Shown here: in pieces, positions 40,221-50,685 of the stretch
Numbering within the stretch: position 1 is the stretch's first letter
Layout of the letters: each line of letters begins with the position of its first letter
Assembly (NCBI GenBank): GCA_037721775.1
Contig: JBBJOG010000012.1
Location: 1,635 to 65,634 of the forward strand
Direction of reading: 5' to 3'
Length of the DNA stretch: 64,000 nt
Source of the DNA: Sphingomicrobium sp.
Lineage (GTDB): Bacteria; Pseudomonadota; Alphaproteobacteria; Sphingomonadales; Sphingomonadaceae
Notes under the pieces: generated by a model
Told to the model about the DNA's origin: nothing
Databases searched by the model: none
Seen by the model: the letters and a program-made list of their open reading frames with translations, nothing else
Position numbers and translations under genes: made by a program

Positions 40221-40297
40221 GCACCCATAGCTCAGCTGGATAGAGCGCTGCCCTCCGAAGGCAGAGGTCAGAGGTTCGAATCCTCTTGGGTGCGCCA
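40221..40297 (+). tRNA. tRNA-Arg(CCG)
   Basis: GCACCCA/TGGGTGC-GCCA; anticodon arm CTGCC-CTCCGAA-GGCAG; GGTTCGAATCC. Confidence 0.98.
40282..40297 (+). repeat. attL core (16 bp)
   Basis: CCTCTTGGGTGCGCCA, identical to 50670-50685. Confidence 0.92.
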
Positions 40298-40307
40298 CCT
40301 TCCGCAT

Positions 40308-41387
40308 TTATCCCTCCTCTTTCAGTGGTTTACGCGCGCCGATGGCTAACCGTTCGCGCAGGTTAGCCATTAGTTTCTCGCCAGCGGCGTCCGAAAGCAG
40401 CTCTTGATCGGCCGCTGCCGTGTATCGGGAAACCTCGGAATCCGTGGCGTGTCCCGTCCAGGCTTTGATGAATTGGTTGCTACAGCCTGCCTCAGCTAAT
40501 CTGCGTGCAGCAGCCTTCCTCAACCCGTGCGCCGAGCATTGGGGAAGCCCTGCTTCGTCGCACCATTGGCGCACCTTGTTGCCGAAGCCCTTGCGGCTGA
40601 ATGGCTTGCCGTGATCGCTCAACAGGAAAACCAATCCACCGGACGGTGCAGCCATGATCGACTCGGCAAGCGCCGGAAGGATTGGAAGCGATACGCTCGT
40701 GCCCGTCTTTTCCTGGGTGACGTGTAGCCGCTTGTTCCGAACATTCGGCGGTCCCATCAGCCTTGCATCGCCGCCCCGCTGCCCCGTCCACAGCATCAGG
40801 TCGAGCGCCAGCCGCGCCTTCGTTCCGACCGGGTGCCGCGCTTCATACCGGGCGATTTCTTCCTCGCTCCAGGTGTGGAAGCCGGTGCCCGCCACCTTGT
40901 AAGGCTTGGTCGCGATGACCGGGTTGCCGGTCGCCATCCCTTGCCGGATCGCAAACTGCATTAGCGCCCGCAGACGCTTGCGGAGCATATTCGCCGCCGT
41001 CCGGTGCGGGAGCATTTCGGACATCATATCCTCGACGTGGCGCGGCTCTAGATCGCGGATTAGTGCGTCTCCATATTTGACCCGCCACCGTTCAATGACG
41101 CCTCGATAAACGACTCGCGTGCGATCGCTAGGATCGAGGAAGTCGGGAGACCGATAGTAGCGCGTTATCAGGTCATGGAAGGTGCCAGGCCGGACGCGCT
41201 CGGCACCGGCCATGATCGGCTCCGCCGCAATGCCTTCGATGCACGCCCGATATTCGGCGCGGAAACCCTCGGTTCCGGGCGCGTGCTTGAATAGATATTG
41301 CGCGAAGCCCTTGCGACGGAAGCGATAGCGCGGCTTGCCGTGGCGGTCGCGGAACTCACTAACCCATCTCGGCAACCAGCGATTCAT
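40308..41387 (-). CDS. int: Tyrosine recombinase / phage integrase
   Basis: WTGQRGGD (Arg), AHGLRK (HxxR), GH...RY (Tyr); adjacent to attL. Confidence 0.96.
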   Translation of the reverse strand: MNRWLPRWVSEFRDRHGKPRYRFRRKGFAQYLFKHAPGTEGFRAEYRACIEGIAAEPIMAGAERVRPGTFHDLITRYYRSPDFLDPSDRTRVVYRGVIERWRVKYGDALIRDLEPRHVEDMMSEMLPHRTAANMLRKRLRALMQFAIRQGMATGNPVIATKPYKVAGTGFHTWSEEEIARYEARHPVGTKARLALDLMLWTGQRGGDARLMGPPNVRNKRLHVTQEKTGTSVSLPILPALAESIMAAPSGGLVFLLSDHGKPFSRKGFGNKVRQWCDEAGLPQCSAHGLRKAAARRLAEAGCSNQFIKAWTGHATDSEVSRYTAAADQELLSDAAGEKLMANLRERLAIGARKPLKEEG

Positions 41388-41569
41388 TGCACCGCCCTCA
41401 GCCGGTCGAAGCTATTGCTCGCAACAGCGGGACCGTCTCCGAACTGCATCTCTATGTCACCAGTCGCCGGATTGACCCGACAGCCGCGCGGCTCAAGCCC
41501 AGCCTTCCGCGCACCGCGAAGGGCACGGGTCAAGTCAGCTTGCTTAAAAGTGGCGCGGCGTGCGACCAT
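41384..41569 (-). CDS. Putative excisionase-like small protein
   Basis: 61 aa, ATFKQADLTRALRGARKAG, stop overlaps integrase start. Confidence 0.7.
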   Translation of the reverse strand: MVARRATFKQADLTRALRGARKAGLEPRGCRVNPATGDIEMQFGDGPAVASNSFDRLRAVQ

Positions 41570-42828
41570 TATGCCGCCGCCCTCCCAAGGAAGCGATAGA
41601 CCGCCTCAATGCGACCGTCTTTGTTGTGGACAGGGACGGTAAGCTCATGCGGAGGCAGCGAGGCGCGCTCCTCGCTTGGGGTGCCTCGCGGGTTCCAGCC
41701 TTCCACCTGCCGGATTTCGTCGGGATCGAGCACGCCGGTTTCGACCGCAATCTTGTGCGACTGCCAGCGGGTTTCCGGATCGGAGCGCAGCAGGCTCGAC
41801 ATGTCGAACTCAAGCTCGAAACGAGAGTCGGGGCCAAGCAATGCGCGGCTCAGCTCAGCCTCAAGCCGACGAACGCGCGGAGTGAGCGTGAATTGGCCAA
41901 ACCAGCGCGCTGCTTCCCGGCTGTTCGTGAAAGTGCCGTGCGACAGGTCGCCGACCAAGGGCGGGGGCACGCCATAAATGCGGGCGATTTCCTCCACAGC
42001 GAAGCGACGGCTCGCCAGCAATTCAGCGTCCTCTGGGCTTATTTGACTGGCCTGCCATTCAAGCCCGCCGTCTAAAATAAGGGTGCTGCCCGCCTTCGCG
42101 GCGCCCTGGTGGCGCTCAGCGAATGTCTCACGGAGAGTATGCCGCTGTTCCGCTGTCATTGCGCCAGGGTGTTTGATGATGCCGCTTGGCTGCGCACCCC
42201 GGTCGAGGAACGTGCGGGCAAATGTCTGTTGCGAGGTCGCGGTGCGGAGAACGTCGCGGGCGCGGCTGAGCCTGGAGCGCCCGATAAAGCCGTCGTCGCT
42301 GCGGTCTTTCAAGTGAACAGCGTCGTCAGCTAGCAGTCGCCGTTTTACCGTAGACGTTCCCGGTTGAGTCGGCTCGTAAACGTCGAAGGCCACGCGCCCG
42401 CTGGGCAGGAGCTGCATCTGGACCCATGCCCAGGGCAGGAAACGAAGCTCGGCAACGCTGCCGTCGCCGTTGCGGATAATCTCGATCAGCGCATTGCCCG
42501 CCAGCTCGACGCTGGCGATGGCCGATTCCAGCAGCGCACCCCAAACCTGATTAGGGTTAGGACCGTAGCGCACTAGGTCGAGCAGCCAATGCCCGCCAGC
42601 CTCGCGGCGGGTGAGGCCGTCCCGCTCATATACCAGCAGCGGGAAGCTCGCCATGTTGCTTGAGATGACGTTGATGCACGCCAGTGCGACCGCGAGGTTT
42701 TCCGCTTGCGCCGCGCTGAACTCGCACTCCCGCTCCATATAGGCGACGGTGACGGGATGCGCGGTCGCTGCCCATGCGTCCCGCTGTTCGGGCGCGAAGT
42801 AGGACCGAACGGTCTGGAGAAAGTTCAT
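41569..42828 (-). CDS. HK97-family portal protein
   Basis: AVALACINVISSNMASFPL, SRRFAVEEIARIYGVPP, DEIRQVEG. Confidence 0.95.
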   Translation of the reverse strand: MNFLQTVRSYFAPEQRDAWAATAHPVTVAYMERECEFSAAQAENLAVALACINVISSNMASFPLLVYERDGLTRREAGGHWLLDLVRYGPNPNQVWGALLESAIASVELAGNALIEIIRNGDGSVAELRFLPWAWVQMQLLPSGRVAFDVYEPTQPGTSTVKRRLLADDAVHLKDRSDDGFIGRSRLSRARDVLRTATSQQTFARTFLDRGAQPSGIIKHPGAMTAEQRHTLRETFAERHQGAAKAGSTLILDGGLEWQASQISPEDAELLASRRFAVEEIARIYGVPPPLVGDLSHGTFTNSREAARWFGQFTLTPRVRRLEAELSRALLGPDSRFELEFDMSSLLRSDPETRWQSHKIAVETGVLDPDEIRQVEGWNPRGTPSEERASLPPHELTVPVHNKDGRIEAVYRFLGRAAA

Positions 42829-43340
42829 CGGTAAGCCTCCAGTCTGAGGCGCATGAGATCCAGCGCGAAAGCAGCGTTGCGCGCCTCCACGGTCGTCGCG
42901 GTATAAGCCGGGAAAGATTGAACGACGCTGATTTCATGCAAGTGGATATTGCGAAGCGTTCGTGTTGTGCCCCGCCATTCATCGCCGCCCTTGGGGGTCG
43001 AGAAGCCGAAGCTCATTCCGCCAGCATCGCCGCGCTCGACCAGTGCGAGCACATCGCGGGCCGCGCTTGTCTCGGGCAGGTCGATTTCAAAGGCGAGGCC
43101 CCGGCTATCCTCGGACAGTCGAAGCGAGCCGCTTTTCGTTCGGCCCAGCAGCTTTCCTGCATCGTGATCGACAAGAGCGAGGATATCGCGCCCACCGCCA
43201 AGCGAAGCCGTGACGGCTCCAGGAGCAATGATTTCCCGGTGCCCATTGATACGCGCCTCGCTGCCATAAACGAGGGCATATCCGGAGAGGGTGCGGCCTT
43301 CCGACCGCACCTCCCCCTGGATGGATGCCCGCCGCTCCAT
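42825..43340 (-). CDS. HK97-family prohead protease
   Basis: LSGYALVY, HDAGKLLGRT, GMSFGF, LHEISVVQSFPAY. Confidence 0.95.
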   Translation of the reverse strand: MERRASIQGEVRSEGRTLSGYALVYGSEARINGHREIIAPGAVTASLGGGRDILALVDHDAGKLLGRTKSGSLRLSEDSRGLAFEIDLPETSAARDVLALVERGDAGGMSFGFSTPKGGDEWRGTTRTLRNIHLHEISVVQSFPAYTATTVEARNAAFALDLMRLRLEAYR

Positions 43341-43341
43341 C

Positions 43342-44655
43342 TTATGCCGCCCTCAAGCCAGTGATGCGGGCGATCGCCGCAGGCCGTGCAATGGCAACAT
43401 CGGCGCGAAGCCATCCGACGAAGCCGACCTGCCCAACCTCCGCGAAACGCTCCTGGAGCACCGTAATCTGGAGCTGAGTGCGAATGCCGACCAGAACCTG
43501 CGAAAAGTCGCCAATGAAAGCGGAACTGGCGTTCGTGCTCGTTCCTTGGGTTTCAGCGATCGGCAGCCCCGTCGTCGTCAACACCTTTAATTTCCGAAAG
43601 AGGGGCGGAGGCTCGATCGGCTGGCCGGTCGTATCGACTAGGCCCGCCAGCGTGCGTGCTGTCCGGGGCGCATAAACAAGCGCGGTGATGTCGCTTTCGT
43701 TCACGTTTTCGAGTGCCAAGATAGCATCGAGGAACGGCCCGTAATTGGCCAGCACCGCACCGTTACCGCCCGTGCTAATCGTCTGGATGCCGGGAGTGTT
43801 GGCAATGCCCAAGGGAGTGTTGGACGTTCCGGTGCCGTAAAAAATTGCGGTGTCGAGGCCACGAGCAAAGGCTTGCCCCATCACGGCGCGGAGCTGGCCA
43901 TCCAGATTAGGCGCGTCTTCCAGCAATTCGCGGGAAACGTTGAAGCGAACCGCAAGCGTCTTTGCATCCAGCGACAAGTCGCCGAAGACAGGCTCGCTCT
44001 CGGCGATATTCGCGTTTTCCGCTCTCCACTGCGGCACGGGATCAGAGATGACTTTCGCCATCCGCAGAGTCTTTGCCGTCATCGGAATCGTTCGAGCACC
44101 GGCCTGAAAAGCAACATTGCGCGTCCGGGCCGCGTCAATAACCTCGGTTGCGAGCGGCGTCGGAAGCAGCGCCCCACCTGAAGCCACAGCCCCTTCAGAA
44201 AGAGCACGCTTTTCGGTGTCAGTGCGGGGGCCGTTTACAAGCGCCCGCAACACGCCCTGCAAGCCGATTTCAGACGCCGCAGATTCCTCTGCCGGAAGAT
44301 ATTCCGAAATCCTTTGCTCAATGCCTAGGACCGGCACGCGATCGCCTTCAGGGGTGCGCCATGCTTCCGGGTCGGTTGCGGAAGTCGATTTTACATTGGC
44401 AAAAACGCGATATTCGACGCCGTTGCTGCCGGGGTTGCCATTCAAGGGCTTGCCCTTGGCGTCCGCATCTTCGCGCGCGATGCGCTCCAGGCGGGTTTCG
44501 TCGCCCAGGATGCGGTCGAGCTCGACAATCTTGCCGTCATAGTCGGTGCGCTGTTCGTCGCTAAGCAGGCCATCGGTGCCAGCGGGTGCGTCAATGATCG
44601 CCTTGGTAGCGGAGCGAAGCTCTGCCTTCCGCTGGCGCAAGGTGTGCAGGTTCAT
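43342..44655 (-). CDS. HK97-fold major capsid protein with delta domain
   Basis: N-terminal coiled coil, GGALLPTPLATEVI, VSRELLEDA, YGTGTSNTPLGI, FIGDFS. Confidence 0.95.
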   Translation of the reverse strand: MNLHTLRQRKAELRSATKAIIDAPAGTDGLLSDEQRTDYDGKIVELDRILGDETRLERIAREDADAKGKPLNGNPGSNGVEYRVFANVKSTSATDPEAWRTPEGDRVPVLGIEQRISEYLPAEESAASEIGLQGVLRALVNGPRTDTEKRALSEGAVASGGALLPTPLATEVIDAARTRNVAFQAGARTIPMTAKTLRMAKVISDPVPQWRAENANIAESEPVFGDLSLDAKTLAVRFNVSRELLEDAPNLDGQLRAVMGQAFARGLDTAIFYGTGTSNTPLGIANTPGIQTISTGGNGAVLANYGPFLDAILALENVNESDITALVYAPRTARTLAGLVDTTGQPIEPPPLFRKLKVLTTTGLPIAETQGTSTNASSAFIGDFSQVLVGIRTQLQITVLQERFAEVGQVGFVGWLRADVAIARPAAIARITGLRAA

Positions 44656-44867
44656 TTTACAAGTCCTTCAATCTGGCCGGGCAAATTCCGGAATTCGCGG
44701 AATTTGGACCCGGCACGGTGAAAGCCGACAGTCTCTCGACGTTGGCATGGTGAGCGGGTGAGGCCCGCAAGCTCGAATAGCTCGACCTGGTGCAAAGCGT
44801 CCCCTGCACCTTTCGGCAACGGCAGACGCGCCAGCCGACCCCTGGTCGAAGGGAGATTTTTGTTCAT
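44652..44867 (-). CDS. Hypothetical protein (71 aa)
   Basis: Start and stop both overlap neighbouring genes (coupling); no known motif. Confidence 0.45.
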   Translation of the reverse strand: MNKNLPSTRGRLARLPLPKGAGDALHQVELFELAGLTRSPCQRRETVGFHRAGSKFREFRNLPGQIEGLVK

Positions 44868-45337
44868 CAGTCGTCGGTTTCCGGGTCGCCAATTATCGAT
44901 CGCTCTTCCTCGGTGTAGTGCGCGACCAAATCGCGTTCCTTGCCGATGCGGAAGGTCGTGACGGCGCGAATGTCGGTGCCGCTAAAAAGCACGTCGTCCC
45001 AAGTCTCAGGTGCTGGAACGTCAGACGCGAGATGGGCGTGACCGCCCCGGAAATAGCTCTCGACATAGCTAACGGCGCGCGCCTCAGGGTGGAGTTTGGC
45101 AACCTCCCCGATCGCACAGGCGATCGTGCCCGCGCGCTCAACGGTGTAACCGTCGTCGAGCAAGCGTTTGAAGAGGAATAGCGTCAGCATGTCGTCCGGG
45201 TCGAAAAGGCGAGCGCGGCCGGGAACTGTCCTCGGTGCACAGCCATAATGGCCAGCGGCAACATACTCGTTGAAGCGATCCCGGTTGAGGCCCGCTATTC
45301 GGCAGGCGACGGGGGTGGTAACTTTCGGGACGGCCAC
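44867..45337 (-). CDS. Putative HTH (MerR/AlpA-like) DNA-binding protein
   Basis: ACRIAGLNRDRFNEYV...GRARLFDPDDM resembles winged HTH; SD GAGGAG before GTG. Confidence 0.65.
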   Translation of the reverse strand: MAVPKVTTPVACRIAGLNRDRFNEYVAAGHYGCAPRTVPGRARLFDPDDMLTLFLFKRLLDDGYTVERAGTIACAIGEVAKLHPEARAVSYVESYFRGGHAHLASDVPAPETWDDVLFSGTDIRAVTTFRIGKERDLVAHYTEEERSIIGDPETDD

Positions 45338-45417
45338 AGCTTAATCTCCTCTTGGGTCGATCCGATAGGTAGACTAGCTCTCGGCTCAAAGCAAGAGGTG
45401 TCCAACTCGGTTCGTCG

Positions 45418-45453
45418 CAAAAAGCTGCCCCCGGCCCGCTAATGCCGGGGCAG
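45418..45453 (-). terminator. Intrinsic terminator inside satellite
   Basis: Minus strand CTGCCCCGGC...GCCGGGGGCAG-CTTTTT. Confidence 0.7.
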
Positions 45454-45461
45454 TCACTGAG

Positions 45462-45749
45462 TTAGACGCCGTCGTCGTATCCTTCCGGGTCGTCGTCCAC
45501 GCCCCGGTCAGGGTCAGCAATCGGGCACCCAGGCCCCTCGCCGCCGTGCTGCATAAAGTCGTCCTCCGAAGCGTTTCCGTCCGCTTCGTCGCCGTTCAGC
45601 TCAACGTCGGTGTCGCCGTCCATTGCGTCGGCAAGGTCGATCGCAACGGCGATGAAGCCGCTAAGTTGTTTCCGGTCGAAGCGCGACAGGATCGCCATGA
45701 CGGCTGGCGCTGGCGGATATGCTGAGGGGAACTGTGCGACGTTACCCAT
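45462..45749 (-). CDS. Highly acidic small phage-type protein
   Basis: 21 D/E in last 58 residues. Confidence 0.7.
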   Translation of the reverse strand: MGNVAQFPSAYPPAPAVMAILSRFDRKQLSGFIAVAIDLADAMDGDTDVELNGDEADGNASEDDFMQHGGEGPGCPIADPDRGVDDDPEGYDDGV

Positions 45750-45933
45750 GACGCGCCTCCCGCTCGTGACGGAGAGAAATGACGCCGAAGTCGAACATTG
45801 CTTCCCAGGCGCGCAAATGCGCCTGGTTGCGAGGATCGAACGCCGGAACGTCAGCTCGCAGCGGACGCGGGCGGGGTGTGAACTTAACGAGATTGTCGGG
45901 GGCGGATTCCGCCCTATGGGTATTTGTAGCCAT
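45742..45933 (-). CDS. Hypothetical protein (63 aa)
   Basis: SD AGGAG before ATG; overlaps next gene. Confidence 0.7.
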   Translation of the reverse strand: MATNTHRAESAPDNLVKFTPRPRPLRADVPAFDPRNQAHLRAWEAMFDFGVISLRHEREARHG

Positions 45934-46003
45934 TGGTCGCTCCTAAATAGCGGTTGGTGGTTAGGCTCGGGTCGGGCGTTTCAGCACCCGGCTCGGGCCG
46001 TCT

Positions 46004-46050
46004 CGTTACCTAACGGACTTGCGTTAGTGACGTCAAGCCGTTAATAACGG
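46004..46050. promoter_or_regulatory. Divergent promoter/operator region
   Basis: Three CGTTA-N1-2-T(A/G)ACG palindromes; TTGCGT-N17-TAATAA (+) and TTGACG (-). Confidence 0.65.
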
Positions 46051-46053
46051 CGG

Positions 46054-46371
46054 ATGGCTTTATCCAATTCCGAACGACAGGCTCGCTACCGCCAGCGGCT
46101 CAAAGATGCCGCTCAGGGCGTAACGCCGGAAATGGTCGTCGCGGCGGCCCGAATCATTTTCGAAGTGGCAGCAGAAGAAAATCCATCGATTGGCAACTGG
46201 CAGGATTTTCTGATTAAATCGCGACAGAAAAGATACCGCACCAATTGGGAAGAGATGGTGCCGGACGATCCTAGGCCAAACGCTTACTGGTTTCTTGAAG
46301 GCGACGATCGCAGGCTAGTCGAAAGTGTTGCAGCCGTTATTAACGCTGCCACGGTTCCGCCGGCTGGCTAA
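46054..46371 (+). CDS. Putative satellite regulator (only plus-strand gene of the element)
   Basis: Basic N-terminal helix LSNSERQARYRQRLK; probably leaderless. Confidence 0.75.
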   Translation: MALSNSERQARYRQRLKDAAQGVTPEMVVAAARIIFEVAAEENPSIGNWQDFLIKSRQKRYRTNWEEMVPDDPRPNAYWFLEGDDRRLVESVAAVINAATVPPAG

Positions 46372-47981
46372 ACCCACATCGGCCCGGTGCCCTTGTAAAC
46401 CTCGGGACCAGTGTCCTTCGCCGCCAATCCGCAGGCCATCACTAGAGCCTGTAAGCCGTCAATGCGATCAATGGAGCGCGCCTTCGACAGCTTCCTCGCT
46501 CCGGCTGCATCAGTGTCGAACACGGCATTGCCAGCGTTCCATCGCAGGACCGGGTGCATCCCATGCCGCAGCTCGCCAGCAAGAAGGGCGCGCTCGAAAG
46601 CATCGACCGCAGGCCCCATGCTAACATAGCCCTGGCCCCACTCGACTAGCGGGAGCTGGACGCCCTCCCCGTCCAGGATAACTTGCAGGTCTTTGAATCC
46701 CCATCGATCATAAGCGACTCCCCGCAGGTCGAAGTCGGCAATAATCTTGGCAATGCGCCGCGAGATAAAGCGTTTGTCGATTGCCGCTCCCGGCGTTGTT
46801 TCCAGGTGCCCTTGCTTCGCCCAAGTCCGGTAAGGAACGCGGTCGGTTTCCTCTTTGACCGCGAGGTTAGTCTTCGGCGTCCAGAAGTAGGGCAGGACCG
46901 CGCCGCCATCCTCGGGAAAGTAGAGCACTAGAGCCGCTAGATCGCGCACTGAGCCAAGGTCGAGTGCCCCGTAGCATGGCCGACCGCGAAGGGCTTTAGC
47001 GTCCACCGGGTCGCCGCACGCGGCCCACTCAGCCGGATTGATGGCCTTAGGTTCCGCGTCCACCCGCATATTGCAATGCAGGTTCAAAAACGCCGGTTCG
47101 AATGTCGGGAGCCGCTTCGCCCGGTCCGCTTCGTCGGCAATTTGCTCAGCGGAAACGAACGTGCCCAACGCCGGGTTGGCGAGCACCCAATTCGCCGGAT
47201 CGAACGGGTCTGCATCCTCGGGAACGGCATAAACAACGCCGTGGAAACTGGCGTCCTCGACCTCCCCGCTGTTCACTCGACCGGCATAATCGACCAGCTC
47301 GCTCATCAGGTTCTCGGGGTGCGGCGATTGCGTGCCGATAACCAGCATCAGCGGCTCTTTGCGCTTCCCCATCGAGGTCCGCAGCACGTCGAACAGCTCC
47401 CGCTTTTTCCACTGTGCCAATTCGTCGGCGCAGATGAAGCTCGACGCGGTTCCATGAACGCTCCCGCCGTCACTGGCGAGCGCCCGATAGGTCGAGCCGG
47501 TTTCCAGGTCCTCGATCCGTTTGTGGAAGCGTTGCACGTTGAGTCGCGCGGCGAGCCACGGCACCGCGAATATCACGGCTTCCATCTCGGCAAAGATCAG
47601 CGCGGCCTGTTCCTTGGTCGCGCCCGCCGAATAGCATTCGCCGCGCTGTTCAGCCTCAGGCCCCGCAAGGTGACAAATGCAAAGCAGCGCGGCGAGCACA
47701 GTTTTTCCCTGGCCTCTTGCAACTGACATGAGGCCGGTGCGGACCCGTCGCTGCCCATTCTCGCCCTCGGCATAGATCGCCTCGATCCACTCCCGCTGAA
47801 ACGGGAGGAGCTTCACGTTCTCGCCAGCGCCAAAGCCCTTGGTTATCGGCATGGATTCGATGAACAGGATAACCCGCTCGGCACGGGTGAGGTTTGCAGC
47901 TTCCCAAGCGTGCGGCCCGCAATGCTCGGCTTCCTCAGCCGCCTTCCGCATCCGGCTCGCGCCTGGTCCCCTAGCGCCCAT
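46368..47981 (-). CDS. terL: Terminase large subunit
   Basis: Walker A ARGQGKT, Walker B ICADEL, nuclease GALDLG and RIDG. Confidence 0.95.
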   Translation of the reverse strand: MGARGPGASRMRKAAEEAEHCGPHAWEAANLTRAERVILFIESMPITKGFGAGENVKLLPFQREWIEAIYAEGENGQRRVRTGLMSVARGQGKTVLAALLCICHLAGPEAEQRGECYSAGATKEQAALIFAEMEAVIFAVPWLAARLNVQRFHKRIEDLETGSTYRALASDGGSVHGTASSFICADELAQWKKRELFDVLRTSMGKRKEPLMLVIGTQSPHPENLMSELVDYAGRVNSGEVEDASFHGVVYAVPEDADPFDPANWVLANPALGTFVSAEQIADEADRAKRLPTFEPAFLNLHCNMRVDAEPKAINPAEWAACGDPVDAKALRGRPCYGALDLGSVRDLAALVLYFPEDGGAVLPYFWTPKTNLAVKEETDRVPYRTWAKQGHLETTPGAAIDKRFISRRIAKIIADFDLRGVAYDRWGFKDLQVILDGEGVQLPLVEWGQGYVSMGPAVDAFERALLAGELRHGMHPVLRWNAGNAVFDTDAAGARKLSKARSIDRIDGLQALVMACGLAAKDTGPEVYKGTGPMWV

Positions 47982-48399
47982 GTCGGTTGCCCTTTGAAAC
48001 TAACTCTATATTTTGGTTCGGGCGCGGTCTTACCCCACCAGCCCTGAGCGATTTTGCTCGATCAATAGTGGGAAAACTGTTCCCACTATTCCACGGGTGC
48101 GCCGGGTCGAGCGGCGTGCCATCGGGGTTGCATCCCTTCCTTGGCTTCGTGCTCTTGATCGCCCCGGCTTCCCCCCCGCGTGCCGTCTTCGCGCTGTGAC
48201 AGCCCGGACAATATGAGGCGAGGCCATCATGCCCAGGGAAGGCAGGCCCGCCCTCGCTCATAGCGTGCCGGTGATCCACGGTGTTCGCCATGCGATAGGG
48301 CTTGCCCATCGCTGTGCATCCTTCGCAGAATGGGAAGCGGGCAAGGTGCGCGGCCCTGAGCTTACGCCATGCGCCGGTGTTGTAAGGCCAGTCAGCCAT
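47971..48399 (-). CDS. HNH endonuclease (terminase-associated type)
   Basis: PFCEGC...TVDHR...YCPGCHSAKT; GCNPDGTPLDPAHPW tail. Confidence 0.9.
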   Translation of the reverse strand: MADWPYNTGAWRKLRAAHLARFPFCEGCTAMGKPYRMANTVDHRHAMSEGGPAFPGHDGLASYCPGCHSAKTARGGEAGAIKSTKPRKGCNPDGTPLDPAHPWNSGNSFPTIDRAKSLRAGGVRPRPNQNIELVSKGNRHGR

Positions 48400-48604
48400 G
48401 CTCAGGCCCCATCATTGCGATTAGGTGCCAATCCTTGAGCACGCTCGCTAGGATCGTGGCACGCGATCGGGAGACGCGGCTGCCGCGCAGCACGCCCTCG
48501 ATCTCCCTTGCCGTCATCGGGCGGGATACCGCGTCGAGCACCAGGATGGCCGTCTGTTTCTGTTCCGGCGTCATGTCCTCGATCAGCTCGTGCAGGTCAG
48601 CCAT
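48392..48604 (-). CDS. Hypothetical protein (70 aa)
   Basis: Overlaps flanking ORFs. Confidence 0.65.
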   Translation of the reverse strand: MADLHELIEDMTPEQKQTAILVLDAVSRPMTAREIEGVLRGSRVSRSRATILASVLKDWHLIAMMGPEHG

Positions 48605-48758
48605 GCGCCAGCCCCCTCAGCTCGCGGGAGTATAGATGTGCCGCTGGCGGCACATTTGGAGGTGTCTGGTGGATGTAGCGTTCCGGGTTGCTCCAATCGG
48701 GCGATAGCCGTCCGATCTCGCGGGCAAGGTCGAGCATCTTGGTATCCGGGGCCATCAT
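48597..48758 (-). CDS. Hypothetical protein (53 aa)
   Basis: Not in ORF track; MMAPDTKMLDLAREIGRLSPDWSNPERY...; ATG overlaps helicase stop. Confidence 0.55.
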   Translation of the reverse strand: MMAPDTKMLDLAREIGRLSPDWSNPERYIHQTPPNVPPAAHLYSRELRGLAHG

Positions 48759-50137
48759 GCCTGCCCCCAATCAATGTCATCTTCATCGGGGGCAGGCGGC
48801 CCAAGGGCCTGCCCCTTATTATACGTAGTATATAGGGGGGTTGGCGCACGCACCTTGGCGCAAGTGTTTTCAATGACTTGGCTAGGGGCATGGCGCGGGT
48901 CAGCGCAGGGGGTTGGCGCAGGGGTTAGCGCGCACTTTTCAGCCGCTTTGATGCCGACCGCAAAGTGCCGGTTTGGCAGTTTCCAAAGCTCCTGATTGAG
49001 CTGGATTCTGCCCAGGTGCAGCAGTCGCTCGAACGCGGCTTCGTATGCCTTGCGCGAGAATTGCCTGCCCTCGGTCATCTTCGCAAAGACGGTCGGGGCA
49101 TAGTTGACGCCGGGGTTATGAGAGACGGCGCGGTTGCTTTCCGTCGCCGCCGCCAAGCATCGCATGAAGGCTTCGTTTTCAGCCGACGCTTGAATGGTCA
49201 GCGCAATGTCCCTCGCTGCATCAGCGGGCAAGTCGGACTCGCGAACATAGGCCATCCGGTGCCAGCGGAACGCGAGCGTTTCACCGTTGCGGGCATAGTT
49301 GGATTTCTGGCGCGACAGCACTCTAGCGTCGGGATCGAGCACCGACCCGTCACTGTCCTTTGGCGTCTCCATGAACAGCCGGGAGCGAACCTGATTCTCC
49401 CAGGCCGTCGAGCCGGAGAAGCTATCGCCAGCCTTGTTCGGATGGCCGATGAACAGCACCGACCCCTTTACGGTCATGGCGAGCTTGTTAAGCAGGTTCA
49501 CGAATTGAGCGACCTCGTGCCGGATATTCTCGTTTCCCGCAAACAGGTGCGCCACGTTGTCGATGCCAATGAAACGGGCACCGATCGCTTGCGCCATGCC
49601 ATTGAGCGCCTGCCAGCGCGGCGTCGTCTGCATTGACGGGCTTGTGTTGCCGAACTCGTCTTTCACTTGGGCATGGCCGAACGTCGCCAGCTCAGTGTCG
49701 GTATGCCCCGCGAGCGAAACAAGGTGCAGCTTGCCGTCAAGCGCGCTCAGCGGCACGCCCAGCGCATCGCAGATGGCCTTCTGACGTTGATGCAGGGCAA
49801 TCTCGTCGTCTTCGCAGGTGATGTAGAGCGCGACCGATTGCCGCGTCTCCACGCCCATGAACGGCAAGCCCAGCGCGATGGCGGTGCATAGCTGTTGCGT
49901 TAGTAACGACTTGCCCGATGCGCCCGGGCCGGTGAGGTAGGTTGCTTGCCGCGCCGGTATCCAGTCGGTGAGCGCCCATTCCCGCTCAGGCGTCGGTTGC
50001 CCCTGCCATGTTGCCGGATTGAGCAACGGCATAGTTTTGCGCCATTGATCCACCATTGAACTGTTGCCGAAAGCAATGCTTTCCGCGGCCTGTTCGAACG
50101 GTGCCCATGCGTCATCATTGTTAGTTGGCTGGAGCAT
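48755..50137 (-). CDS. RepA-like (AAA_25/SF4-type) helicase
   Basis: YLTGPGASGKSLL, YITCEDD, IGIDN, IGHPNK, FSGSTAWEN..R; start probably ATG 50137. Confidence 0.88.
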   Translation of the reverse strand: MLQPTNNDDAWAPFEQAAESIAFGNSSMVDQWRKTMPLLNPATWQGQPTPEREWALTDWIPARQATYLTGPGASGKSLLTQQLCTAIALGLPFMGVETRQSVALYITCEDDEIALHQRQKAICDALGVPLSALDGKLHLVSLAGHTDTELATFGHAQVKDEFGNTSPSMQTTPRWQALNGMAQAIGARFIGIDNVAHLFAGNENIRHEVAQFVNLLNKLAMTVKGSVLFIGHPNKAGDSFSGSTAWENQVRSRLFMETPKDSDGSVLDPDARVLSRQKSNYARNGETLAFRWHRMAYVRESDLPADAARDIALTIQASAENEAFMRCLAAATESNRAVSHNPGVNYAPTVFAKMTEGRQFSRKAYEAAFERLLHLGRIQLNQELWKLPNRHFAVGIKAAEKCALTPAPTPCADPRHAPSQVIENTCAKVRAPTPLYTTYNKGQALGPPAPDEDDIDWGQA

Positions 50138-50453
50138 CGAAGCCTCCCATCCGGTCGAGCGTCGAGGCCGTGCAAAGCAGCCGGAGACAGACGTTCGCAG
50201 CATCCTCCAGGTTGCCCAGGTCCTGAAACCTAAAGACATAGGCCGCCGACACATCGAGAATGACTTGATGCAGGCTAAGCGCCTGGTCGGTATGCCCGCT
50301 CGGGTTCGACAGTGCGGTTGTCGCGAGGTCTCGCGAAGTCATCAGCCGCTTGCGGAGCTTCCTGATATTCTCAGGCTCATTGATGGGCACCAGGGCCGAC
50401 AGCGCCGCGTCGTATCGGTCGGGAACGGTGATCGCGGGGAAGGGCATATTCAT
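50121..50453 (-). CDS. Hypothetical protein (110 aa)
   Basis: Overlaps helicase start; SD GGGAGGG upstream. Confidence 0.65.
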   Translation of the reverse strand: MNMPFPAITVPDRYDAALSALVPINEPENIRKLRKRLMTSRDLATTALSNPSGHTDQALSLHQVILDVSAAYVFRFQDLGNLEDAANVCLRLLCTASTLDRMGGFDAPAN

Positions 50454-50669
50454 TGCGCTGCCCTCCCGCTTGCGGTATCATTCGCTTGCCTGCCCGCTGC
50501 TATGGAAAGGCCCGCCCTCGCATCGGTTGCCGCCGACGCGGGGGCTTCTTTTTGCCCCGGCGGAGCGCCTGAGCGGTTAGCCATTGGGAAAAGGTCGCGA
50601 GAGCAATTCGTGATCGACAGCGTGCCGGTTAGCCTTTGCTTGTCACTGTTTTCGTTAGACTGTTGCACC

Positions 50670-50685
50670 CCTCTTGGGTGCGCCA
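50670..50685 (+). repeat. attR core (16 bp)
   Basis: CCTCTTGGGTGCGCCA duplicate of the tRNA-Arg 3' end. Confidence 0.92.

Follow-up and report, generated by a model that had tools for sequence, protein, structure and literature searches.

We describe a 10.4-kb element in a 64,000-nucleotide stretch of DNA from Sphingomicrobium sp. (contig JBBJOG010000012.1; hereafter the window), which lies at positions 40282-50685 behind a gene for tRNA-Arg(CCG) and combines an integrase and a replication helicase with the genes for an HK97-type head and its DNA packaging. We conclude that it probably is an intact element from a separate lineage, in which alphaproteobacterial integrative elements form capsids but no tails; it probably works like a satellite of the capsid-forming phage-inducible chromosomal island (cf-PICI) type and, by analogy with that type, most likely spreads by borrowing the tails of other phages. 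The family to which it belongs is apparently undescribed, spans Alphaproteobacteria and is size-locked at 10.2-11.0 kb. The capsid-forming satellites characterised until now come from Gammaproteobacteria and Firmicutes, and the family would extend the capsid-forming strategy to Sphingomonas, Acetobacter, Gluconobacter, Gluconacetobacter, Roseomonas and Hyphomonadaceae, bacteria of environmental and industrial importance. With a design stripped to about 14 genes in 10.5 kb and no recognisable small terminase (TerS) or connector, it offers a naturally reduced model in which to study how small HK97 heads assemble and how capsid size is set. Culturable carriers exist for circular copies (Belnapia arida T18 and Roseomonas sp. 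BN140053) as well as for integrated copies (Acetobacter pomorum LHT 2458, Acetobacter farinalis KACC 21251 and Gluconacetobacter dulcium LMG 1728).

Integration at the 3' end of a tRNA gene

The attachment (att) cores, the target gene and the putative integrase-binding sites of the element are as follows.

40221-40297, plus strand: tRNA-Arg(CCG), the integration target, the last 16 nt of which form the attL core (ARAGORN; Rfam tRNA, 70.7 bits)
40282-40297: attL core cctcttgggtgcgcca, read directly, identical to 50670-50685
50670-50685: attR core cctcttgggtgcgcca, read directly
40342-40351 and 40361-40370: inverted GGTTAGCCAT motif pair, putative arm-type sites of the integrase-proximal arm (motif count)
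50575-50584 and 50627-50636: direct GGTTAGCCWT pair, putative arm-type sites of the distal arm (motif count)

An earlier note on this DNA had claimed an exact 16-bp repeat enclosing 10.4 kb at tRNA-Arg(CCG), with both att sites and all catalytic motifs intact. ARAGORN and direct reading of the repeats and of the catalytic motifs checked bear this out, the unit between the exact repeats being 10,388 bp long. By our arithmetic, the chance expectation for a 16-mer repeat within ~12 kb is ~3e-6, and the repeat found here coincides with the 3' end of the tRNA and adjoins the integrase gene. Of the 10-bp motif GGTTAGCCWT, the 64-kb window holds four copies where 0.07 would be expected, and all four lie no more than 100 bp from the att cores. 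This placement fits arm-type sites of the integrase and, at the level of sequence, argues for a functional attP, the junction of which is predicted to read ...TGTTGCACC-core-CCTTCCGCAT...

The surroundings of the site were compared across genomes (labels beginning with G; labels beginning with L denote loci fetched from genomes and from IMG/VR). The element has a GC content of 61.6%, against 66.3% in each flank. In the congener G305 the site is empty: the same tRNA gene is followed, ~190 bp on, by the gene that forms the right flank in the window. The tRNA-Arg(CCG) gene is an integration hot spot in the genus, with inserts of 1-8 kb in G338, G306, G352, G333 and G336. At the same tRNA-Arg, G357 carries a 43-kb HK97-like tailed prophage (G357:C1:2350097-2392938, L167-L169) bounded by a 49-bp partial tRNA repeat and encoding TerL, portal, tape measure protein, an HK97-gp10-like protein and an integrase; HK97-like tailed prophages thus exist in the genus.

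The non-coding right arm of the element also holds, at 50510-50556 on the plus strand, a G+C-rich hairpin followed by TTCTTTTT, which alignment shows to be kept as a hairpin in the Sphingomonad relatives and which could end a plus-strand transcript running against all genes of the element. An ORF (open reading frame) at the attR end, 'f36', was rejected as a gene, being of low complexity and conserved at the DNA level in a way that matches the arm sites and the hairpin.

Genes for a head and its packaging, and none for tail or lysis

Matches to Pfam and PHROGs, together with direct reading of motifs, gave the following genes and features.

40308-41387, minus strand: tyrosine integrase, 359 aa (PF00589, 7e-20; phrog_1, 1e-41)
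41384-41569, minus strand: orf61, a conserved 61-aa ORF between portal and integrase (22 homologs, all ~60 aa)
41569-42828, minus strand: HK97-family portal, 419 aa (PF04860, 1e-89)
42825-43340, minus strand: S78 prohead serine protease, 171 aa (PF04586, 6e-39)
43342-44655, minus strand: HK97-fold major capsid protein, 437 aa (PF05065, 9e-39; Phage_capsid domain at residues 160-432)
44867-45337, minus strand: CvkR-like MerR-type transcription regulator, 156 aa, first gene of the head operon (PF13411, 7e-5)
45429-45450, minus strand: intrinsic-terminator-like hairpin, 7 G-C pairs followed by a T run (sequence)
45462-45933, minus strand: variable accessory slot with the acidic orf95 (45462-45749) and orf63 (45742-45933) (no family match)
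46368-47981, minus strand: large terminase TerL, 537 aa (PF03354 and PF20441, ATPase and nuclease domains; phrog_9, 6e-134)
47971-48399, minus strand: HNH endonuclease, 142 aa (PF01844, 4e-5; phrog_2323, 2e-21)
48392-48604, minus strand: orf70, a conserved small protein (77% identical in L006, dN/dS 0.18; no family match)
48597-48770, minus strand: family-wide small protein of 57 aa with the motif RLxPDWxNPERY (found in 11 of 14 elements)
48755-50254, minus strand: RepA-like AAA_25 helicase, longest ORF 499 aa (PF13481, 6e-29; phrog_906; start probably at ~50137)

All named genes are uninterrupted and lie on the minus strand, and the earlier note's assignments of integrase, portal, protease, capsid, TerL, HNH endonuclease and RepA-like helicase all stand. 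Its 'xis-like' protein does not: orf61 was rejected as a classical excisionase, having no sequence family and no Xis-like fold match, so that the label is positional only. The AlphaFold2 (AF2) model of orf61 (predicted local distance difference test, pLDDT, 78) has a beta-alpha-beta-beta arrangement, and the ORF accompanies a related integrase subtype in L001, L008 and L041 (a Rhizobium locus). From its position and its co-variation with the integrase subtype, orf61 is a candidate recombination directionality factor.

The integrase has the HGLR residues and the C-terminal Y, the protease the motifs VDHD and GMSFG, and TerL a Walker A (GQGKT) and a Walker B (FICADE) motif. Among sequences in the PDB, the portal matches those of HK97 (8cez) and of RcGTA, the gene transfer agent from Rhodobacter capsulatus (6tba, E 7e-26). 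Ahead of its Phage_capsid domain, the capsid protein has ~160 N-terminal residues that, on the model of HK97, probably form a delta (scaffolding) domain. HNH endonucleases of the kind encoded next to TerL assist cos cleavage in HK97-like packaging.

Pfam and PHROGs identified no tail or lysis gene among the ORFs of the element. The element is 87% coding, with gaps of 211, 124, 434 and 532 bp, and its largest unassigned ORF is 95 aa long; it therefore has no space for such genes, as the earlier note had also argued. The hairpin at 45429-45450 divides an operon for replication and packaging from one for head formation and integration.

The replication helicase is 52% identical to the helicase part of the Toprim-AAA_25 protein of L009; the replication module in the window has no primase domain. 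In the 434-bp gap after TerL, positions 45926-46000 (minus strand) give a sub-threshold Rfam match to the antisense RNA of plasmid R1162/RSF1010 (38.5 bits against a gathering threshold of 55; E 8.5e-4). Because the helicase is of the RSF1010 RepA (AAA_25) kind, a plasmid-style antisense control RNA is conceivable on this sequence evidence. The C-terminal half of the small protein at 48597-48770 is divergent in the window (IHQTPPNVPPAAHLYSRELRGLAHG in place of the consensus F-x-DR-x-EIE-x-L-x-LA), which may reflect a compensated frameshift and is the sole hint that the element has suffered wear. No support as genes was obtained for the plus-strand ORFs at 50350-50580, 46054-46371 and 45610-46044, and orf95 and orf63 had no match in Pfam, PHROGs or PADLOC.

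A family of relatives of constant size

A search with the capsid protein returned 360 homologs, many of them on contigs of 10.3-11.2 kb, and 13 further complete units, drawn from genomes and IMG/VR and belonging to Sphingomonadaceae, Acetobacteraceae and Hyphomonadaceae, share the gene order of the window element: rep, small ORF, HNH, TerL, variable slot, MerR-like gene, capsid, protease, portal, small ORF, int and tRNA. This order occurs in Sphingomonas metagenome-assembled genomes (MAGs) and beyond Sphingomonadales, the further carriers being Acetobacter (four species), Gluconacetobacter, Gluconobacter, a Hyphomonadaceae isolate and Caulobacterales. Ten integrated copies are bounded by exact repeats of 16-47 bp from the 3' ends of tRNA genes, with units of 10,164-10,836 bp and seven different targets (Arg-CCG, Arg-CCT, Glu, Gly, Phe, Ala and Ser). 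Taken over all 14 complete units, circles included, length is 10,536 ± 268 bp (mean and standard deviation; range 10,163-11,028 bp). So tight a unit length, across capsids that are 41-83% identical, is what would be expected of a capsid-capacity limit on the packaging of unit-length DNA.

Some members of the family are circular assemblies. IMG/VR locus L070 is a circle of 10,163 bp which, since it carries the integrase, is an excised form, and the L067 assembly wraps around on itself. The two circles from isolates, of 10,710 bp in Roseomonas sp. BN140053 and of 11,028 bp in Belnapia arida T18, have no integrase and carry primase-helicase modules. The Belnapia circle has a coverage of 554, compared with 243 for one contig of 19.5 kb in that assembly (~2.3-fold), and is a low-copy episome with about two copies per chromosome, in a genome that has no other HK97-type portal (Phage_portal) gene.

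Relative to L006, the capsid of which is 83% identical, the ratio of nonsynonymous to synonymous divergence (dN/dS) is 0.09-0.10 for TerL, capsid, protease and portal; dS is saturated (>1.3) and the ratios are hence rough, though far below 1, and they indicate strong purifying selection on the core genes. Members of the family turned up in 2 of the 300 Sphingomonadaceae genomes searched and in 1 of 400 from Alphaproteobacteria, and this rarity, together with the empty site in the congener, fits an element that moves horizontally and is not domesticated.

Two parts of the unit vary. The replication module has been swapped among members, which carry AAA_25 alone, Toprim with AAA_25, a VapE-like protein, a RepA_N-like protein or PriCT_2 with AAA_25, and the gene content of the slot that lies between TerL and the regulator differs from relative to relative. 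As to a defence function of the slot, PADLOC, Pfam and PHROGs gave no match on ten accessory proteins. In the Acetobacteraceae clade the slot encodes a protein of 156-221 aa (L017 8862-9362, with homologs in L018-L021 and L028) which has a twin-arginine signal (SRRDIFPA...AGLAKPE) and, judged by that signal, would be a secreted cargo.

None of the phage genomes searched is closely related to the family. In 50,697 phage genomes the capsid found no match above 28% identity and the portal none above 35.5%, and no tailed relative was seen; tailed homologs of the element were what the earlier note had named as evidence against its proposal. The best phage match of TerL is 39% identical, in HK544-like (lambdoid) coliphages. 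Among viral contigs, no relative with at least 40% capsid identity exceeded ~12.6 kb. A look-up by identical protein sequence gave no match for the capsid of the window.

A regulator shared with other islands

The 156-aa protein that opens the head operon has an AF2 model of high confidence (pLDDT 92), and its top Foldseek match, over the full length, is CvkR (7xn2; E 8e-6). CvkR is the MerR-type repressor of type V-K CRISPR-associated transposons. Homologs 57-85% identical to the window protein occur across many Alphaproteobacteria in at least three architecturally different island types, namely the head-only family, an island of Ancylobacter, which has TerS, TerL and a tape-measure-like gene and no capsid, and a canonical-order, cf-PICI-like island of Azospirillum brasilense. 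The protein is more conserved than the capsid; the window copy of the element has no AlpA. On the strength of the structural model, it is probably a shared regulator and the master switch of the element, and its distribution suggests a common induction switch across island types. The same protein was tried as a small terminase and rejected, because of its CvkR fold and because a separate Terminase_4 gene co-occurs with its homologs in L145 (10001-10477) and L147 (10001-10471).

A head-tail adaptor in the sister clade

In all six elements examined of the Acetobacter, Gluconacetobacter and Gluconobacter clade, a gene for a protein of 110-113 aa lies between HNH and TerL. It matches the gp6-like Pfam family Phage_connect_1 (PF05135; 27.8 bits against a cut-off of 21.2) and the PHROG head-tail adaptors. 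A head-tail adaptor is useless without a tail, and this gene is therefore the best evidence that heads of the family are finished with borrowed tails; by analogy, it points to tail theft as in cf-PICIs, for which the use of borrowed tails has been demonstrated by experiment.

A set of observations nonetheless weighs against a tail-borrowing satellite in the window. Firstly, the adaptor is not recognisable in the window copy or the Sphingomonad clade by hmmsearch with the f28 profile, hhalign, Pfam or PHROGs; a hidden adaptor was rejected in this clade after the f28 profile, hhalign against the 115-aa ORF at the adaptor position of L006 and a PDB profile search had all proved negative. Secondly, Pfam and PHROGs found no TerS (Terminase_4 or other) on any ORF of the window, TerS is not recognisable in any family member, and a head-tail connector is unmatched in every member examined. 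Adaptor and connector are the components that determine tail use in cf-PICIs, according to the cf-PICI work, and neither is recognisable in the window clade. Thirdly, in the genome that holds the window (2.15 Mb, 98% complete) the portal and TerL of the element are the only ones, and a tape measure protein, PhageMin_Tail and Phage-tail_3 are all absent. The genome thus has no recognisable resident helper prophage, and any helper must come from outside. Lastly, the Belnapia episome shows autonomous, plasmid-like maintenance that needs no helper, and the saturation of dS leaves the dN/dS values approximate.

Proposed life cycle

In the cycle that we propose, the CvkR-like regulator at the head of the capsid operon would silence the island until a cue is received, the probable source being a helper phage that infects the cell or is induced. 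The integrase, possibly with its 61-aa partner, would then excise the island and the AAA_25 helicase module would replicate it, while its own capsid, protease and portal would build a small head sized for ~10.5 kb. Scaling from HK97 (T=7, 40 kb) by L ~ T^1.5, our arithmetic predicts a T=3 or an underfilled T=4 geometry. TerL and HNH would package unit-length DNA, in a cos-type reaction as in HK97-like phages. Since genes for lysis, tail and receptor binding are absent from the element, release and tail attachment would rely on a tailed helper phage; we infer this dependence from these absences, from the adaptor of the sister clade and from the analogy with cf-PICIs. In the Acetobacteraceae clade, the gp6-like adaptor would dock the borrowed tail. 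The Sphingomonad clade has no recognisable adaptor, and there both neck and tail would accordingly have to come from the helper.

Comparison with known systems

The prototype cf-PICI, EcCIEDL933, is 15.4 kb long (Alqurainy et al., bioRxiv 10.1101/2022.09.08.507074; He et al., bioRxiv 10.1101/2025.02.11.637232). We compared the window element with the definition of cf-PICIs in bioRxiv 10.1101/2025.02.11.637232 and with SatelliteFinder (PMC10085698), which accepts merR profiles as regulator. It is att-flanked and lies at the very bottom of the size range of ~10-18 kb, and it has the integrase, an AAA_25 replication module, a MerR regulator, capsid, protease and portal, HNH and TerL, and no lysis or tail module. 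TerS, the head-tail adaptor, the head-tail connector and sequence kinship with a described lineage were not found. Since the first three of these are defining components, we file the element as a separate lineage that most likely works like a cf-PICI.

The likeness extends to organisation. Like cf-PICIs, the element is integrative, with a replication module, an HK97-type capsid, protease, portal, HNH and TerL of its own and neither tail nor lysis genes; its head genes are distant from any phage, it has a variable accessory slot, and the replication and integrase modules are swappable. With the proteobacterial cf-PICIs it shares the unusual sub-order capsid-protease-portal described in the cf-PICI paper. 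In contrast, the window family is about one third smaller (10.2-11.0 kb against 15.4-16.5 kb), places HNH and TerL upstream and not downstream of the head genes, has the integrase at the far end of the head operon and uses a CvkR-like MerR regulator where cf-PICIs use AlpA. It also differs in having no recognisable TerS or connector, and the gp6-like adaptor in the Acetobacteraceae clade only.

For a direct comparison, the Klebsiella cf-PICI-like record LR881103.1 (L170) was aligned with the window proteins by BLAST: the portal is 32%, the protease 46% and TerL 26% identical, and the capsid shell is not alignable. TerL of the window is closer to that of the lambdoid coliphages (39%) than to this one. 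The record, 16.5 kb long, is deposited as 'Escherichia phage vB_KppS-Ant', an 'induced prophage', with one ORF annotated as a tape measure protein. Its genes follow the set and order of cf-PICIs (capsid, protease, portal, gp9, connector, HNH-like, TerS and TerL, plus integrase and primase), and it appears to be a satellite deposited as a phage.

Other small elements share fewer features. P4 (11.6 kb) resembles the element in size, tRNA-gene integration and plasmid persistence, and in a small head and the use of a helper for tail and lysis, the last two being predictions here. Unlike the element, it has no capsid, portal or terminase of its own and remodels the capsid of its helper P2 through Sid and Psu, neither of which has a gene in the window element. 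The uncharacterised island L147 of Azospirillum brasilense is likewise alphaproteobacterial, its MerR/CvkR-like regulator is 66% identical to that of the element, and it encodes TerL together with a portal and a protease-capsid fusion. It differs in its canonical order (int, regulators, primase, portal, protease-capsid, head completion, TerS, TerL), its Terminase_4 and HCP-type head-completion genes, its length of more than 14 kb and the opposite position of its integrase. Marine virion encapsidated integrative mobile elements (VEIMEs) are without capsid genes, and the 'twilight' HK97 mini-genomes are without portal and terminase. Our literature search found no paper on capsid-forming satellites in Alphaproteobacteria, and neither the SatelliteFinder paper (PMC10085698) nor the cf-PICI papers mention Alphaproteobacteria.

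Alternative explanations

The alternative that survives best, which we regard as rather unlikely, is an autonomous plasmid- or virus-like element that uses its small capsid without tail theft, either by releasing tail-less filled capsids through lysis or vesicles or by keeping the capsid for maintenance or defence. The integrase-less circular relatives are indeed kept in pure cultures of Roseomonas and Belnapia, the latter at ~2.3 times the coverage of the one contig compared and beside no other Phage_portal gene, and the lack of a recognisable adaptor, connector and TerS in the window clade, as well as the failure to find a helper in the window genome, are in keeping with it. Against it, the window copy has no lysis gene and no candidate for receptor binding or membrane fusion, its largest unknown ORF being 95 aa long. 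Portal, TerL and HNH are the head machinery of tailed phages, the adaptor conserved in the Acetobacteraceae clade is meaningful only with a tail, and cf-PICIs are known from the cf-PICI work to release tail-less heads that are later joined to free tails. Because plasmid-like members persist without a helper, a tail-independent or plasmid-first lifestyle keeps a real but minor probability.

We give a similarly small chance to a more ambitious proposal, in which everything holds jointly: the family would comprise the smallest self-packaging genomes of the HK97 lineage, with a T=3-class head, would be a fourth independently evolved capsid-forming lineage and would have two unprecedented lifestyles. 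One would be that of a low-copy plasmid, followed by the integrase-less members ('plasmid-satellites'); in the other, the Sphingomonad clade would capture a complete neck plus tail from a helper or move as tail-less capsids. The floor quoted for tailed phages and P4 is 11.6 kb (PMC13669383), and the family units of 10.2-11.0 kb lie below it.

That the element is the head-and-packaging remnant of a decaying prophage which has lost its tail and lysis modules is very improbable. All structural genes are phage-derived and the rest of a phage is absent from the genome, as decay would leave them, but at least ten other genomes hold such a unit, 10.2-11.0 kb long between exact att repeats, with seven tRNA genes as its sites, circular forms exist, ORFs and motifs are intact, and no tailed relative is present among the 50,697 phage genomes. 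The earlier note had preferred a satellite with its own architecture over a decayed prophage, and the 13 syntenic units, the size lock, dN/dS of ~0.1, the empty site and the sporadic occurrence support that preference. Least credible of all is a domesticated, host-serving particle system of the gene transfer agent (GTA) type: despite the alphaproteobacterial host, the HK97-type head, predicted to be small as in RcGTA, and a portal detectably similar to that of RcGTA (6tba), RcGTA-type GTAs have tails, occupy a vertically inherited, fixed locus, package host DNA and lack integrase, att sites and replication module, whereas the window element has all three, falls outside RcGTA membership, is sporadic and mobile (in <1% of related genomes, at varied tRNA sites, with an empty site in a congener), differs in GC from its host flanks and is locked to a size that fits the packaging of its own genome and not of host DNA.

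Further elements with related capsids

PLSDB holds no close relative of the element. Matches H20-H36 (e.g. NC_008226.2) are ~7.8-kb plasmids of Clostridioides difficile (pCD630-like) with a capsid homolog that is 27-28% identical, another instance of very small replicons with an HK97-type capsid gene. More distant capsid homologs, 39-48% identical, stand as the final gene in small islands from Gamma- and Betaproteobacteria and from Novosphingobium (L023, L027, L033, L035 and L024), in which the window proteins detected no portal, protease or TerL. A second group of ~10.3-10.6 kb (L095-L102 and L106 from IMG/VR, L031 and L036) has the order TerL-protease-capsid-portal and capsids that are 38-41% identical, and one of its members, L102, is a circle of 10,483 bp with a 127-bp terminal overlap; this group suggests a wider set of ~10-kb head-only elements.

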